A DNA stretch of 32,121 nt from a virus (taxonomy: Duplodnaviria > Caudoviricetes), in the IMG/VR virus record IMGVR_UViG_3300020042_005194, positions 1 to 32,121 of that record; one strand, given 5' to 3'. Below the pieces are notes generated by a model that was given only the letters and a program-made list of their open reading frames with translations, did not search any database and had not been told where the DNA came from. The position numbers were made by a program, and so were the translations under genes. Shown one piece after another: positions 19,961 through 32,121 of this stretch. Position 1 is the stretch's first letter; the number at the start of each line of letters is the position of its first letter.

Positions 19961-20914
19961 TTAAAAAAGTGTGTTTTTAATTATATCACCTTTACCATTC
20001 CAAAATATAGACTCAAATACTTTCTTCTTATTGTTAGTAGCTGACAAACTACTTCTGTGTGAAAACATTTCAATCTTTTCAAAAGGTGCATCATACTCAC
20101 TCAAATAAGCTGGATAATCTAAATTAGCAAACCATTGATAAAAAGAATCGTGATTAAATCCTCCATCTTTATATTCGCCTGTTCCTTTGTATGGAATATC
20201 ACAGTAAATTACAGGATTATTTCCTTGTATTAAAACTTTTTCATAACTTGTGTTATTTGTCTGTAGGTTCTGTAGGTTCTGTAGGTTCTGTAGGTTCTGT
20301 AGGGTCTGTAGGTTCTGTAGGTTCTGTAGTCGTGTTAAGTGTTCAACTAATTCTAAGTTTTGAACATCACATCTTTTTTCTGTTATTTTTTTAACGTGGC
20401 TACAAAAAGCTAATATTCTTTTTTGAATATCTTTTATTTTAAAAATACCATCCATATTTAAACCTAACTTAAACATTGCAGTTTCGTCTAAATTAACTAT
20501 TAATTCGTGTGCAAGTCTTTTAAATTCTTCAATATCAGCACCATATAAATATGAATTTTGACTATTACCAAAACTCCAGCAACTCATAACAAAACCAGAA
20601 AACCAATCCGCATCTTCATTACTTTTATTTATTTGTTTATGGAACTCTTCTCTGGTTACCCATTCGTAAAATTTAGGATCTAATTCTTTATTGTTTTTAA
20701 CATACTCTACTAAACTATAAATATGTTTATTTAATTCGTTGTAATGTACGTTAAAACGGTAATCTCTTACTGCAGTAAAACTAATTGAACCTCCACCGCC
20801 AAACAAATCATAAAAGTCTGTTATTTTTTCGTGTCTGTTTGTAATTTTTTCTAATATTTGAGAAGCTAATTTTCTCTTACTCCCCATATAAGGTATCCCT
20901 AAATTTTGTTTCAT
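19961..20914 (-). CDS. DNA adenine methyltransferase (Dam/D12-like)
   Basis: PYMGSKRKLA, DLFGGGGS SAM-binding motif, YCDIPY catalytic-motif variant. Confidence 0.85.
   Translation of the reverse strand: MKQNLGIPYMGSKRKLASQILEKITNRHEKITDFYDLFGGGGSISFTAVRDYRFNVHYNELNKHIYSLVEYVKNNKELDPKFYEWVTREEFHKQINKSNEDADWFSGFVMSCWSFGNSQNSYLYGADIEEFKRLAHELIVNLDETAMFKLGLNMDGIFKIKDIQKRILAFCSHVKKITEKRCDVQNLELVEHLTRLQNLQNLQTLQNLQNLQNLQNLQTNNTSYEKVLIQGNNPVIYCDIPYKGTGEYKDGGFNHDSFYQWFANLDYPAYLSEYDAPFEKIEMFSHRSSLSATNNKKKVFESIFWNGKGDIIKNTLF
20261..20329. repeat. 9-bp tandem repeat (CTGTAGGTT) x7 plus partial
   Basis: Seven units (one CTGTAGGGT) plus CTGTAG; encodes (LQN/LQT)8 in the methylase. Confidence 0.95.
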
Positions 20915-22590: not shown

Positions 22591-22820
22591 TTTTGAACTA
22601 AAATTGAACCATTTTGAACCAAGGTTCAACGTGGGAAGCATTGGTTTTATTGAGTTTTGAACCAAATTGAACCAAATAGGTTCAAAATATATTTTTCGAA
22701 ATTTTTATTTCTATTTTTTTATTTCATTTTACATTTTGAACTAAATTGTTCAAAATAGGTTCAAAACCTTTATTTTATTAGGTCTAACAACTTTGAACTT
22801 GGTTCAATTTTGGTTCAATT
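22591..22820. repeat. Putative replication origin with TTGAAC iterons
   Basis: 13 copies (7 TTGAAC, 6 GTTCAA) in two inverted blocks around an AT-rich core, between primase and helicase genes. Confidence 0.75.
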
Positions 22821-25134
22821 ATTTATCTAATTCTTTAATATATTTGTAAATCATCCTTAAAGAAACACCTAAATTTTCAGAAACATCTTTTTTATTTATA
22901 TCTGGATTATTTTTATAAATCTCAATAAACTGCTCTTTTGCACTTTTATTTTTATTGTTCAAAATAATAGATTTCATACTGTTTATTTCAATAGAATTCA
23001 TTTTTACTTTTTTAGCAGTAGCAATAAAGTAATTACTTAATTTTTCTGCTTTTAAGACACTTTCTTTTGAAATACCTAAACTATTACCGCCGTCACTAAA
23101 AAACTCGTCAAATACGTGAATTAATAACGAAAAACGTGGTATGTAACTTTTTTGTTTAGGATACATACTTTTTAAATATTCATTTTCGTTATCGTCATTT
23201 TGAAAGTTAGAAATTTTATTAAAAATTCTTTTCCATTCCTCTTTAGCTTCTGGTAGAAAAACAGCCGTTAATGGTATTATACTATTTTCTGAATCTCTTT
23301 TAATAATTCTTTTTAAGGTATCATAAAAAGAAACTATATTTTCTTTGTACCAGTCTAAAACCTCGTATTCCATTTCGTTTTCATTGTATAGTTCAATTAC
23401 ACTATCTGGAAATGATAACAACATCCTATCCATAAAACCATTATCTTTATTTTCTTCAGTATAAAAAGAATTTAAAATACTCGGTTGTATACCACCAAGA
23501 ACAGGAATAAAAGGTTTTTCTACAAATGAACTTTTTGCCGTTTTACGATTGAAACTCACGGACTTACCACTCCAACAAGATAACCAGAATTCTAAATCCG
23601 AACCAGCTCTATACTTATTCATATCTTTTAACCACCCCGCAAGTTCATCTTTAAAAACTCCTACTACATTATCACTATCTTGGTGTAAATCTACTAACGC
23701 TTCAAGTGTAATATCATTTGCTATAAATTGGCTTTTACTCGGTTGTGTTACTTCTAAAGACTCTTTCTTTTCCTTTGGTGGTAATGAATTATAAGCATCG
23801 TATTTTTCCATTTCTTTATAGTATTTTTTAATTTCTCTACTATTTATTTTTTGCAATGGAAATATAATATTGTTAATACTTGGAGTTTTACCAATACCAG
23901 CTTTACCAACTAAAGAAAGCCAAACACTTGCGTTTTCTGTCCATCCTTTTTTAACTTCAATTTCAATAGAGTTACCAACACAAACAGAAATTAACCAAAT
24001 TAAAGAACATCCCATATAATCAATATTAGAATCTAATTTTTGATTACATTCCATTATATAATTTTGCATAGGTTTAGGAAAAATGTCAATTGGGAAAATT
24101 AAGTCTTCTGAATTGATAATGTGTTTTTCTATTAGTTCAGAATTATCTGGCACAGACTTACTGGCTTCTTGTATTTTCTTTTCAATACGTGATCCAAAAC
24201 CTAATTTATATAATTCACTTGCAGCTTCTTTAAAATTACCATTATGATATTTATAAGAATAAGCAATAAAAGGAGTTATTAATTTTTCGTGTGGGTATAT
24301 TGTACCAGTTGTAAATAAGAACATACAACCACTATCTTTAAAAACATAACCAGAATGTTCAGCAGTTGAACCATGTCTTTTTATTAAAGTCCATTTACTT
24401 TTATTACCATTTCTTGGTATTGAAAACTCTCCATCGATAACATCCCAAATAGAAGTTTTATTATTATAATCTTCCCATGGAGAAAATTCTCCAGTAATAA
24501 ATTCTGTTTTTCGTTTTTCTGGTTCAATTGGCTTTTCTTCTATATGGTTATACATTCCAGAAACTTCAAAAAGCATTTCTCTATCTTTGTCAGAAATATA
24601 ATCTACTTCAAAATAAGAACGTTTAGAAACTTTATTTTCTGGATACGCAAACACATAACCCCATTTACCACGAGTTTCAATAATAGCTTCTTTATGCCCT
24701 TTTAACTTTGCTACTTTTGTATTTCCTTGAACTCTTTTACTTTTATAAAGTATATGAAACCCCTCGTTTTTTGTTTTATAGATAGCAAACTTTTCTTCAA
24801 AGTCAATAATATTATCTTTTAACATATTGAAATATTCATCCCAAAACTCAACTTTTTCTTGAGCAGTTGAAAATACTTTTAAATCAATATCAAAAACTTC
24901 TAAATCTTCAAAACCAGTTACCAATCCAAAACCATGCGTTGGTTTTACTTCGTGAACTATTCCGCTTTCATCTGTCCACTTTTGCCCACCTTTGTATTCT
25001 AAACGATAAGTAAGTTTAGAAACATCTAACTTTTCAGTTTGTTGTTTAGTCCATCCAAAGTTAGGAACTTTGTTTTCTCCAACTGTAATAACTGAGAAGT
25101 TCTCTAAAAACTTTAATACTTTTTGTGTGTCCAT
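22819..25134 (-). CDS. Primase-polymerase / DUF3987-like helicase fusion
   Basis: Prim-Pol motifs FDIDLK and TKNEGFHILY; Walker A GKAGIGKT, KDELAGW, GGIQP; C-terminal HTH. Confidence 0.85.
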   Translation of the reverse strand: MDTQKVLKFLENFSVITVGENKVPNFGWTKQQTEKLDVSKLTYRLEYKGGQKWTDESGIVHEVKPTHGFGLVTGFEDLEVFDIDLKVFSTAQEKVEFWDEYFNMLKDNIIDFEEKFAIYKTKNEGFHILYKSKRVQGNTKVAKLKGHKEAIIETRGKWGYVFAYPENKVSKRSYFEVDYISDKDREMLFEVSGMYNHIEEKPIEPEKRKTEFITGEFSPWEDYNNKTSIWDVIDGEFSIPRNGNKSKWTLIKRHGSTAEHSGYVFKDSGCMFLFTTGTIYPHEKLITPFIAYSYKYHNGNFKEAASELYKLGFGSRIEKKIQEASKSVPDNSELIEKHIINSEDLIFPIDIFPKPMQNYIMECNQKLDSNIDYMGCSLIWLISVCVGNSIEIEVKKGWTENASVWLSLVGKAGIGKTPSINNIIFPLQKINSREIKKYYKEMEKYDAYNSLPPKEKKESLEVTQPSKSQFIANDITLEALVDLHQDSDNVVGVFKDELAGWLKDMNKYRAGSDLEFWLSCWSGKSVSFNRKTAKSSFVEKPFIPVLGGIQPSILNSFYTEENKDNGFMDRMLLSFPDSVIELYNENEMEYEVLDWYKENIVSFYDTLKRIIKRDSENSIIPLTAVFLPEAKEEWKRIFNKISNFQNDDNENEYLKSMYPKQKSYIPRFSLLIHVFDEFFSDGGNSLGISKESVLKAEKLSNYFIATAKKVKMNSIEINSMKSIILNNKNKSAKEQFIEIYKNNPDINKKDVSENLGVSLRMIYKYIKELDK

Positions 25135-29795: not shown

Positions 29796-29918
29796 TTACT
29801 TACCATATTTAAGTTTTAAAATGTTTCTTAATACTTTGTTTACAGATTCTTTATTTACACCACGCTCGTAATTAAAACGTTGTATTCTATTTATTCTTTG
29901 TAGTGGTGAAAGTTTCAT
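29796..29918 (-). CDS. Small basic hypothetical protein (40 aa)
   Basis: Not in ORF track; MKLSPLQRINRIQRFNYERGVNKESVNKVLRNILKLKYGK; TAATG overlap with exonuclease stop. Confidence 0.5.
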   Translation of the reverse strand: MKLSPLQRINRIQRFNYERGVNKESVNKVLRNILKLKYGK

Positions 29919-30823
29919 TATATAAATAAATTAGTTTTAAACTTTAAATAATTCATATAAGCAGAATTACTTATTTCATTTGTAGCGTTGCAATCTTTAC
30001 ACTCCATTAAACGTTTAATTGTACCTAAAGTAGTGACTATATTTTTAAGAAGTATAATATCTTCAGAACCGCAACAACTACAACTAAATTTTAAATTTCC
30101 ACCTAATACCCCAGCGTGTGTATTTGGCTTTATGTAGTTTTGCATTGTTTGAAATACATCTTTTAACACAATTATATCCCCCTCGCAATAAACAACCATT
30201 TCTTGCATAGCTTCTTTAGAGCCGTTTAATACATCTTTCCACATATCAAAACCTCTATGTTTAACCTTTGCCCCAACTCCTAAAAATTGAGCAATATAAT
30301 CTAATTTATTTGAGTTAAAATTAAATCCGCTTTTTGCTTTTTTAAGTGTGTCTAAAGTTTTATAACTTGGAAACATTGGTACTCTATGAAATATACAACG
30401 TGTACGCAACCATTTCATGTCAAACCTATCTCCATTGTGTGCTATTATTTCATCCGAAGTATTAGCTACTTTTAAAAAGTCAATTAACATTTGTTTGTCG
30501 CATTGGTTTTTATCCCAAGTTAATGTATGAATTTTATCTTCATCCTCCCAATTATAAGATATACAAATTATACGTCTTTCTTCTATAATATCTTGTGGTT
30601 GTATTGATAAGTTGTAACCTGTTCTCCAAAAGTAACCAATATTCGGACTTGTTTCAATATCAAAAAATAATCTTCTTATTTGGTGAGTGTTTTCCCTTAA
30701 TTTAATAAGTTCTAATTCTTGTTTTTTAGATAGCCTATATCTGTTTTTTAAATTAAAACTTAATCCTAATTTTTGAACTTCTACGTTATTTAATCGATAA
30801 CGTCTTTCTTTGTTTGTTTTCAT
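29918..30823 (-). CDS. DnaQ/RNase H-like 3'-5' exonuclease with C-terminal zinc ribbon
   Basis: ExoI FFDIETS, ExoII HNGDRFD, ExoIII YCEGD; CSCC and CKDC. Confidence 0.85.
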   Translation of the reverse strand: MKTNKERRYRLNNVEVQKLGLSFNLKNRYRLSKKQELELIKLRENTHQIRRLFFDIETSPNIGYFWRTGYNLSIQPQDIIEERRIICISYNWEDEDKIHTLTWDKNQCDKQMLIDFLKVANTSDEIIAHNGDRFDMKWLRTRCIFHRVPMFPSYKTLDTLKKAKSGFNFNSNKLDYIAQFLGVGAKVKHRGFDMWKDVLNGSKEAMQEMVVYCEGDIIVLKDVFQTMQNYIKPNTHAGVLGGNLKFSCSCCGSEDIILLKNIVTTLGTIKRLMECKDCNATNEISNSAYMNYLKFKTNLFI

Positions 30824-30826
30824 AAA

Positions 30827-30961
30827 TTAATTTTTAGTTAGTTTTAGTTTTTCATAATACAATTTTTCTGCGTATTTCTTAACTTTAATTTCGTCCTCTT
30901 TGTCGAACGCTCGGAAATAATAGAGTTTCCCAGCGAGTTTTTTTCTTCCAGCCTTTGCCAT
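30827..30961 (-). CDS. Small basic hypothetical protein (44 aa)
   Basis: Not in ORF track; MAKAGRKKLAGKLYYFRAFDKEDEIKVKKYAEKLYYEKLKLTKN. Confidence 0.5.
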   Translation of the reverse strand: MAKAGRKKLAGKLYYFRAFDKEDEIKVKKYAEKLYYEKLKLTKN

Positions 30962-31026
30962 TTATATTTTATTTTACGCAAGTGTTAAATTTTTAACTTG
31001 CTGATTATTAATTAGTTTAAAAGTGT

Positions 31027-31055
31027 ATTGCGTATATATGCGAGTTATGCGTAAT
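31027..31055 (+). other. attI-like simple recombination site at array boundary
   Basis: ATTGCGTATAT-ATGCGAG-TTATGCGTAAT: 11-bp imperfect inverted arms around 7 bp, containing the GTTATGC core but no attC-like hairpin body. Confidence 0.5.
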
Positions 31056-31590
31056 GGCTACGATACTGCTCTAAATTGACAGACCCTTCTGCTTCATTGC
31101 CCCAAACGTCCCAACCCTGCTTTACGTCCCTTGCAAATAATTCTATTCTGTTTCCTGATGGATATATCGTGTCTATTAAGTCCGCGAAATACTTTGGTTT
31201 TTTTGAATGTTCGGTGCGTTCTATTGAAACAACACTATCAAACAATTTCTTTATTTCGGGTGTGCAACTTCCTTTAGTGCATATCAATAAAAGCTCGTGC
31301 CTTACAGAGTTATAATGCCCCATATTGTGTTTTATTTTATCCCAAACAAAACTACTTTTATATTTGAAACCCCACGATTTTATAACAGCAAATGTTTCTT
31401 CAAGTAATGGGCTTGTAGTCCAAATAAATAAAACAGCGTTATCTTCTGTAAGGCACTTTACAGGTAAGTTGCAAAGTTCTTTTATTGTCATTGTTTGATA
31501 GTGTTTTACTGCACCTCCAAGTTTAGGTGTATTTTGCTTGTCGTTATATTTCCAAGCAGGGTCTGCATAAATTATTTTGTATTTCTTCAT
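31045..31590 (-). CDS. MT-A70 family adenine methyltransferase
   Basis: YADPAW, LFIWTT, WGFKYK, HSKKP, IELFAR, GWDVWGNE; likely start ATG 31590; stop TAA lies inside the GCATAAC core. Confidence 0.9.
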   Translation of the reverse strand: MKKYKIIYADPAWKYNDKQNTPKLGGAVKHYQTMTIKELCNLPVKCLTEDNAVLFIWTTSPLLEETFAVIKSWGFKYKSSFVWDKIKHNMGHYNSVRHELLLICTKGSCTPEIKKLFDSVVSIERTEHSKKPKYFADLIDTIYPSGNRIELFARDVKQGWDVWGNEAEGSVNLEQYRSHYA

Positions 31591-31718
31591 TCTAATTAAA
31601 TTTATCGTTAATAAACCGCCACTACGCATAACAGCGGTTTTGTGCTATTTGCCCCATCAACATTTGTTGTAAATTGAAGCCTTGTGCAAGGGGCAAACAG
31701 ACACAAAGCCACAGGACG
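31045..31718. mobile_element. Putative gene cassette 1 (MT-A70 methyltransferase plus attC-like site)
   Basis: Bounded by GTTATGCGTAATGGC (31044-31058) and GCCACTACGCATAAC (31618-31632), 14/15 inverted match. Confidence 0.65.
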
Positions 31719-31726
31719 TTATGCGT
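31624..31726. repeat. attC-like imperfect palindrome
   Basis: ACGCATAAC-AGC-GGTTTTGTG-CTATTTGCCCC...GGGGCAAACAG-A-CACAAAGCC-ACAGGAC-GTTATGCGT. Confidence 0.75.
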
Positions 31727-32049
31727 CAGCTTACAAGAGCATCCCAATAACTAACGTGTTTATTAATGACAGAACCGCCACCGCAACAATTTACGTTGTG
31801 AATTTGACAGCCATTAGGTTTTAATTGTTCATCGCAAACGGTTTTAACAACGAAAACTTTGTCATCATCAAACCATTCTTTTTGACAAACATTGTGAGTG
31901 CCACCCGAAAAATCCCCTTCAAGTTCAACTTGTTTTTCTCTAATTCCAACAACTTTAAAAGGTTCGTGTCCGTAATAAACACATTCAATATAAACAGGAT
32001 ACATATTCAAAACTTTGTATCCTTTAATTGCTACTTTTTTGTAATTCAT
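31726..32049 (-). CDS. Hypothetical Cys-rich protein (107 aa), cassette cargo
   Basis: VELEGDFSGGTHNV; stop TGA abuts CGCATAAC core. Confidence 0.65.
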   Translation of the reverse strand: MNYKKVAIKGYKVLNMYPVYIECVYYGHEPFKVVGIREKQVELEGDFSGGTHNVCQKEWFDDDKVFVVKTVCDEQLKPNGCQIHNVNCCGGGSVINKHVSYWDALVS

Positions 32050-32086
32050 TTTATTTATTTTTTAAGTTTAATATTAATAAAAGCCG

Positions 32087-32121
32087 ACGCATAACAAGGG
32101 TTTTACACAAGGTGGGAAGAC
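32087..32121. repeat. Second attC-like site, left arm only
   Basis: ACGCATAAC-AAG-GGTTTT parallels ACGCATAAC-AGC-GGTTTT of the first site. Confidence 0.6.

Follow-up and report, generated by a model that had tools for sequence, protein, structure and literature searches.

The right end of this phage genome is best explained as an integron-like cassette array, in which one-gene units enter at a primary site at position 31044 and are moved at a GTT core by a Bacteroidota tyrosine recombinase acting in trans, a reading to which we assign a probability of roughly 0.78. The window, meaning the entire 32,121-nt stretch of DNA that was analysed, is a linear record, estimated by CheckV to be ~97% complete, whose right end falls inside the array. 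Its gene set is that of a tailed phage (portal, terminase, primase, helicase), nearly all on the minus strand, and its closest sequence neighbours are Flavobacterium phages, which points to a Bacteroidota host. The earlier note on this DNA had proposed a cassette-capture locus of this kind, and our analysis supports it: gene content varies at the core in related phages, the second cassette is followed by a full site in relatives, such sites flank single genes in other genomes, and the array is larger than first reported.

Anatomy of the array

Two single-gene units, as the earlier note had described, make up the visible array, both coding on the minus strand (Table 1). The site between them comprises a left core (31626-31632), a 3-nt spacer (31633-35), a 9-bp stem with an extra A at 31701, a 7-nt spacer (31711-17) and a right core (31718-31724). 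As single-stranded DNA it folds at -23.9 kcal/mol on the plus strand (z -4.0) and -26.4 kcal/mol on the minus strand (z -5.0), and on either strand 0 of 200 shuffles folds equally well. The imperfect palindrome with an asymmetric 3/7 spacer and one extrahelical base that had been noticed at 31624-31726 is thereby confirmed, those limits being its 9-bp core-plus-flank span. A second site, placed by the earlier note at 32087, proves to be a plus-strand left arm starting at 32089 (32087 if the flank is counted), with its right arm beyond the record end at 32121; in two of three relatives (L431 and L432) the same 107-aa cassette, with its left edge at 31716, is followed by a complete hairpin. The record thus holds one full hairpin and one cut hairpin. 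An exact search of viral contigs with the second-site left arm gave 0 matches, and 13 primase relatives provided no rightward extension of the record. Rfam returned 5 chance matches only over the window, the list of a generic repeat finder does not include the hairpin site, and our site detector, with a background of ~10-15%, called one false site in the window.

Table 1. Coordinates of the features at the right end of the window
Feature	Position	Strand	Remarks
44-aa ORF	30827..30961	-	occupies integrase-gene place of integrase-carrying phages
Primary insertion site	30975..31046	+	inverted 7-bp pair 30975-30981 / 31028-31034; core ATA-N5-GTT 31036-31046
Cassette 1, 674 bp	31045..31718	+	inverted ends 31044-31058 / 31618-31632 (14/15), gene, then hairpin
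MT-A70-family DNA methyltransferase gene, 181 aa	31045..31590	-	PF05063 E 3e-25; phrog_359 DNA methyltransferase E 4e-60
attC-like hairpin	31626..31724	+	3-nt and 7-nt spacers, extra base 31701; travels with cassette 1
Cassette 2, cut at record end	31719..32121	+	inverted ends 31718-31732 / 32081-32095 (14/15)
107-aa gene, cassette 2	31726..32049	-	matches no known family
Left arm of second hairpin site	32089..32121	+	right arm past record end

Two features come in addition to what the earlier note had observed, the primary site at 31044 and 15-bp self-complementary ends on each unit. The two ends of each unit pair with one another over 14 of 15 positions, compared with only 9 for the flanks on either side of the array site, and among 696 GTTR starts in the window just these two units show own-end pairing. 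The same holds more widely: own-end pairing exceeds array-site pairing in 77 versus 16 of 105 phage cassettes and in 46 versus 3 of 49 bacterial cassettes. Such inverted pairs are expected if each unit exists as a circle with a longer hairpin site, and the modelled circle site folds at -31.2 kcal/mol, compared with -26.4 kcal/mol for the array site.

The methyltransferase gene takes its stop codon from the TAA of the core, and a longer frame of 194 aa starts inside the core, at 31629. Several phage cassette ORFs elsewhere (L005-L008, L081-L086) likewise open within the hairpin and continue across the core, which means that the site gives them their start and first residues. The 107-aa protein has no match in Pfam, NCBIfam or PHROG, and its Atlas matches reach only 0.78, none of them useful; relatives of its gene also occur as ordinary phage genes without sites (L433 and gp110 of the Cellulophaga phage phi17:2). 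The 44-aa ORF is probably outside the cassette system, and other phages with the same primary site have different neighbours in its place. Its product has an Atlas match of 0.92 with few shared features, a weak lead to small DNA-binding domains; a guess that it adopts an RHH fold was unsupported.

Elsewhere in the window, the exonuclease gene at 29918-30823 seems to occupy an exchangeable slot, with a contig from run X2 joining 29918 to 30821 and cultured relatives carrying a 381-aa gene in its place. The D12-class adenine methyltransferase gene at 19961-20914 contains a 9-bp tandem repeat of ~8 copies (20251-20338), and GGTTCAA-type repeats, some direct and some inverted, form a cluster at 22654-22826, between the genes for helicase and primase, that is a possible replication origin.

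Cassettes move at the GTT core

Two sets of loci establish that the cassettes are mobile. First, Baltic Flavobacterium phages in culture carry the same hairpin site family, and we compared 20 of their arrays. Between lillamy9-1 and 9-3, which are equal in length, a 100%-identical unit of 439 bp has shifted from mid-array to first place, and across the 20 arrays this first place is taken by 7 different cassettes. Gene content in these related phages varies with breakpoints at the core, as the earlier note's reading requires: 66 of 89 distinct block ends fall in intervals (-9 to +12 nt) around called GTT cores that together make up 4.1% of the array bases. The other 23 lie away from called GTT cores; 3 are close to TAAC, and the remaining 20 include 4 at an uncalled GTTA. 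Branch points confine the crossover to GTT(A), the exact bond lying beyond their resolution, and identity across the junction of primary-site insertions is only 5-12 nt.

Second, the window's own cassettes recur at metagenome loci with matching edges. The methyltransferase cassette was found at 80 loci, of which 24 (the 23 best and one more) were compared. Its identity to the window starts at 31043-31044 in 7 of the 24, with differing left neighbours, and at 31026 in 2, which have the primary site too; its right edge falls at 31721-31726 in 3. Recurrences of cassette 1 with these edges are 93-96% identical in DNA, and the remaining loci are cut by contig ends, divergent at the 3' end of the gene, or distant. 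The window's methyltransferase gene also occurs, at 76-95% DNA identity, with other hairpin families (L434, L438, L439, L441, L442, L453 and L456), and in several of these seven loci identity stops ~8 nt past TAAC. Crossover at GTT only does not explain one methyltransferase gene on different hairpins.

Single genes bordered by sites of this kind are found in many phage contigs and Bacteroidota genomes. Searched with one exact 26-nt arm, viral DNA gave 91 matching stretches; a degenerate arm matched 112 genome stretches, mostly from Flavobacterium and other Bacteroidota, with some bins labelled otherwise. Sites within one locus are co-oriented (448 calls on the major versus 12 on the minor strand; complement-only controls gave 66 calls). 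In phage loci the genes run against the sites in 140 cases versus 1 with them, a count that includes redundant arrays without de-duplication, and in bacterial loci they run with the sites in 36 cases versus 6 against.

Relatives chosen by other genes look different. In 80 relatives found by the neighbouring exonuclease gene, the array is not upstream of the exonuclease, and any sites lie downstream in another layout; the closest relatives by primase do not have this array layout. In sequencing runs X1, X2, X3 and X7 (4 of the 21 listed), there are contigs with full identity to 29884-30860, as well as loose ends at 31048-31049 that carry other cassettes; depth on the primary-site contigs far exceeds that on the backbone contig, which precludes assigning the cassettes to this phage. 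The window's cassettes are uncovered in the run contigs, which carries no evidential weight, and no circle junction was seen in the contigs of the four runs, contigs being prone to drop rare forms.

Site geometry

The 3/7 spacer geometry, which the earlier note had singled out as unlike classical attC, is general. Among 360 strand-counted sites, defined by own-end pairing alone with spacing left out of the definition, the spacer offset is 4 nt in 256 and 3-5 nt in 330, compared with 0-1 nt in 2. In the window the extra base at 31701 and the 4-nt spacer excess both lie in the crossover arm. A count of extra bases by arm (297 right, 4 left, 109 ties) was discarded as circular, the detector having required that base, and the geometry therefore rests on the sites defined by their own ends. 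Of the two strands, the minus strand gives the stabler fold at 152 of 245 phage sites and at 92 of 130 bacterial sites, a modest preference. The conserved part of the core is only [CT]AAC/GTT[AG]. The GCATAAC core, also held to be unlike classical attC, is not distinctive, the identical heptamer being present in TJE1_attC2, which is reported to be recombined by IntI1.

A primary insertion site

A fixed site receives cassettes at the first place of the array. Scored with a matrix built from 22 chromosomal sites that lie downstream of a Flavobacterium chromosomal tyrosine recombinase, window position 31044 ranks first of 64,200 positions, at 21.4 versus 14.3 bits, and it ranks first again, at 15.7 versus 10.2, under a matrix of 18 phage-integrase sites. 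It is identical to a chromosomal primary site (L408) at 11 of 14 positions, and the 14 nt before the core are common to six viral contigs, five of which carry five other cassettes and one of which ends there. Crossover would take place within GTT at 31044-31046. Position 31044 is thus the functional equivalent of attI, classed by function rather than by sequence match to attI1. The stretch 30950-31056, considered as a second hairpin site, folds no better than shuffles (z -1.5 and 0.0), and is therefore not a hairpin site, in keeping with a primary site that is double-stranded.

The inverted pair at -69/-16 that is present in the window occurs in 10 of 22 chromosomal sites versus 1 of 18 phage-integrase sites; this host-like layout leans towards a host enzyme. 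Counting against a host-type reading, the chromosomal matrix gives the corresponding site in the cultured phages -9.7 bits and a rank of ~2,700.

A recombinase family linked to the arrays

The co-occurring integrase family that the earlier note had asked after exists, and it lacks the IntI insert. The tyrosine recombinase adjoins cassette arrays in F. seoulense, F. wongokense and phage contig L171, carries a Phage_int_SAM_4 domain and has NF040815 as its best match, with TIGR02249 below its cut-off (157-205 versus 265 bits). Against VchIntIA the match falls into two pieces with 18 versus 61 residues between them, ~43 residues of the IntI-specific region being missing. In one sample centred on Flavobacterium, 77 of 121 genomes have a match to the family at E <= 1e-60.

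The recombinase is linked in position to both kinds of site. Among the 30 best chromosomal loci, ATA-N5-GTTR lies 92-123 nt past the recombinase stop in 22, and 24 have after the stop a -7 box that we take to be a Bacteroidota-type promoter element. The best 80 viral loci include 61 that encode a form of 255-295 aa, 36 of them with the motif just upstream, and in integrase-carrying phages the integrase gene starts ~35-90 nt from the primary site. Of the short phage recombinases, 41 have 1 kb or more of sequence upstream, and in 27 of these hairpin sites lie there, versus 2 of 19 other ORFs, none of which has the primary-site motif just upstream. In a tree of 78 sequences that leaves out IntI, the phage forms and the chromosomal forms each make up a clade of their own (support 0.98 and 0.87), and the array-linked recombinases stand apart from XerC/D-like proteins of the same genomes; the tree is midpoint-rooted, drops rows that failed a motif filter and is uninformative on origin.

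Relatives of the recombinase turn up in further settings. Some Flavobacterium genomes have a long form with a big N-terminal extension (L294, 580 aa). On the Chryseobacterium plasmid NZ_CP041688.1 (L530:9001-14800) there is a full set of recombinase, primary site and cassette array, within which lie IS110 and a group II intron. Plasmids of Clostridium estertheticum and C. tagluense (hits H50-H70) encode recombinases that are 45-46% identical. The genes tet(X3) (L528:4160-5680, NZ_CP041297.1) and blaVEB-3 (L529:5745-6800, NZ_CP084417.1) each follow directly on a 5'-truncated relative (~50% identity), and each is preceded by a GTTA junction; neither junction is an exact ATA-N5-GTT, and the left arm of a hairpin site follows tet(X3). 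A search for other blaVEB contexts gave matches dominated by an IS end.

Source of the recombinase and alternative readings

A profile search of the record found no tyrosine recombinase, in agreement with the earlier note's remark that no integrase was in view, and PF00589 has no match in 5 of 5 complete cultured-phage genomes, with controls positive in 14 of 14. The absence of the recombinase from complete array relatives argues for its supply in trans. Supply in cis, with the same cassette system and an integrase gene in a portion of the genome that the record lacks, is improbable: the record is indeed linear and stops inside the array, and many phages have a short integrase of this family, but the usual integrase place near the primary site here holds the 44-aa ORF, completeness is put at 97%, and the five complete array relatives do without an integrase.

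Modular shuffling driven by repeats occurs in T4-type phages. It is slightly less probable still that the hairpins here are regulatory repeats, with genes shuffled by homologous or microhomology recombination through phage recombinases. The phage encodes a YqaJ nuclease (Pfam search), hairpin families recur and some breakpoints fall within stems or near TAAC, and a minority of stem swaps may fit such shuffling. However, the primary site has few bases in common with the hairpins (insertions there have 5-12 nt in common across the junction) and yet takes 7 different cassettes, inverted ends belong to every cassette individually, sites of the same kind adjoin a dedicated recombinase, and breakpoints concentrate at GTT (66 of 89 ends) rather than in shared repeats.

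We give about the same small weight to the array being a relic, its cassettes captured once and no recombinase now acting on the lineage. The record has no integrase, and variants of this exact genome were not directly viewed; against this, the cores are intact, the ends pair at 14 of 15 positions, the primary site keeps its 11-of-14 likeness to the chromosomal one, and recent moves are seen in cultured phages that equally have no integrase. The least credible reading is a conventional CALIN, made up of classical attC sites on which a canonical IntI acts, for although the TAAC...GTT cores, the hairpin and the crossover at GTT would suit it, and phage CALINs have been described, with IntI1 recombining a P12002L junction in the accessible text of PMC9892861, the spacer offset is 3-5 nt in 330 of the 360 sites and 0-1 nt in 2, the linked recombinase lacks the IntI insert, and the sole tested site of the family, P12002L_attC1, failed with IntI1 in that same text.

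A possible mechanism

The evidence best fits cassette movement by a recombinase in trans, and the following steps are proposed for it. A Bacteroidota tyrosine recombinase that lacks the IntI insert likely cuts and re-inserts the cassettes, and would come from the host or from a co-infecting phage; the host is the most likely source, given the host-type layout of the window's primary site. Tyrosine-recombinase chemistry links the core in which crossover occurs to the strand that is cut, and crossover in the right core implies cutting of the minus-strand hairpin, so the cut strand would be the window's minus strand, the coding strand of the phage genes. A cassette would leave as a circle, its site folding into a longer hairpin, and after re-insertion the junction would be resolved by replication, by analogy with integrons, whose pathway served as our model (PMC8946536, in the part accessible). 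The extra base and the 4-nt spacer excess in the cut arm may let an enzyme that has no insert choose the strand. New phage cassettes would enter the transcribed array at its downstream end, with the hairpin upstream of the gene, and their cargo, often DNA methyltransferases, likely guards against host restriction.

On this comparative evidence the system is real, mobile and mechanistically coherent, and seems to work like an integron without being a classical one. A more ambitious reading, of a second integron lineage, joins five elements: (a) an XerA-like recombinase without the IntI domain, together with asymmetric 3/7 hairpins, common to Bacteroidota and their phages; (b) lytic phages that lost the recombinase, kept a host-type primary site and hijack the host enzyme; (c) inverted phage cassettes, as a result of which the host and phage pools would be silent in each other's arrays; (d) genes that swap hairpins and so expose how cassettes arise; and (e) fragments of the platform that took tet(X3) and blaVEB-3 into Gammaproteobacteria. 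Taken jointly, these five remain tentative, and we rate their conjunction at a little under even odds.

Several of the cassettes carry methyltransferases, and in the cultured phages a methyltransferase difference has been tied to plating efficiency (PMC7077304); the accessible text of that study does not use the word 'integrase', and no repeats of this type were found there. It does describe cultured phage-host pairs, which makes hijacking of a host enzyme directly testable. One gene on different hairpins offers a handle on cassette genesis, and the positions of tet(X3) and blaVEB-3 behind recombinase relatives suggest a route for the first mobilisation of Bacteroidota genes.

Comparison with known systems

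The system shares with classical integrons cassettes of one gene each, hairpin sites of the AAC...GTT form, a crossover at GTT, cassette excision with re-insertion at a primary site, and an adjacent tyrosine recombinase with Phage_int_SAM_4. Its sites have the elements by which attC is defined in the accessible part of PMC8946536: an imperfect palindrome with AAC/GTT cores, an unpaired spacer, an extra base and a variable terminal part. The crossover, bounded to GTT(A), agrees with the G|TT of the right core in classical sites.

Three differences set it apart. First, the classical integron integrase is defined by an IntI-specific additional domain, described in the accessible part of 10.1101/2022.02.06.479319 as necessary for integron recombination; the array-linked family lacks ~43 residues of that region, and the record has no integrase at all. 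Second, classical spacers are near-symmetric (reported as 5/6 in aadA7) whereas those here are 3/7, and the extra base lies opposite the crossover arm there and, as a mirror image, in the crossover arm here. Third, both window genes face the primary site rather than following the classical attI-to-attC orientation under a Pc promoter, as do phage loci generally (140 opposite versus 1 same) in contrast to bacterial loci (36 same versus 6 opposite); in addition, the chromosomal recombinase here is co-oriented with, and upstream of, the array. On domain, geometry and orientation, therefore, we do not file the system as a classical integron.

A CALIN is defined as two or more attC sites, as called by IntegronFinder or HattCI, in the absence of intI. 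The closest published case is the CALIN of Polaribacter phage P12002L (Qi et al. 2023, PMC9892861), in which attC-like sites without an integrase flank methyltransferase genes of a virulent Bacteroidota phage, and P12002L_attC1 has the asymmetric geometry of the present family. In the accessible text of that paper the sites are treated as ordinary attC, and the geometry, primary site, own-end pairing and recombinase are not described. From its sequence, the P12002L attC2 that IntI1 recombined looks like the primary-site junction of the array (the two P12002L stretches concerned are L430:29174-29240 and 30005-30060). The earlier note's expectation that standard integron tools miss the system holds only in part, HattCI having picked up one family site in P12002L.

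Other likenesses are partial. NF040815, 'site-specific tyrosine recombinase/integron integrase' (XerA-like), is the best family match, and relatives bear the labels xerA and tnpF; these and TnpF are labels only, no paper having been found that ties the proteins to cassette arrays. The Re1 repeats around blaVEB-1a (PMC9427477, in the part accessible) are direct repeats that flank a single gene outside class 1 integrons, and were compared with these hairpins by description only; blaVEB-3, as noted, lies directly behind a recombinase relative. For Bacteroidetes, the accessible text of the IntegronFinder 2 paper (PMC9024848) names In0 elements as the sole earlier finds and a single complete integron, in Salinibacter, and those In0 calls may bear on this family.

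The literature searched, a scope outside which most subscription journals lie, yielded no description of the system; one such site was found in print, reported as an ordinary attC in the accessible text of PMC9892861. If the reading is right, a recombinase without the IntI domain that runs arrays in many Flavobacterium species and their phages would contradict the claim that this domain is necessary, and such arrays would also contradict the near-absence of complete integrons from Bacteroidetes in PMC9024848, as far as its accessible text goes. The system would then be a form of integron-like gene shuffling distinct from classical integrons.
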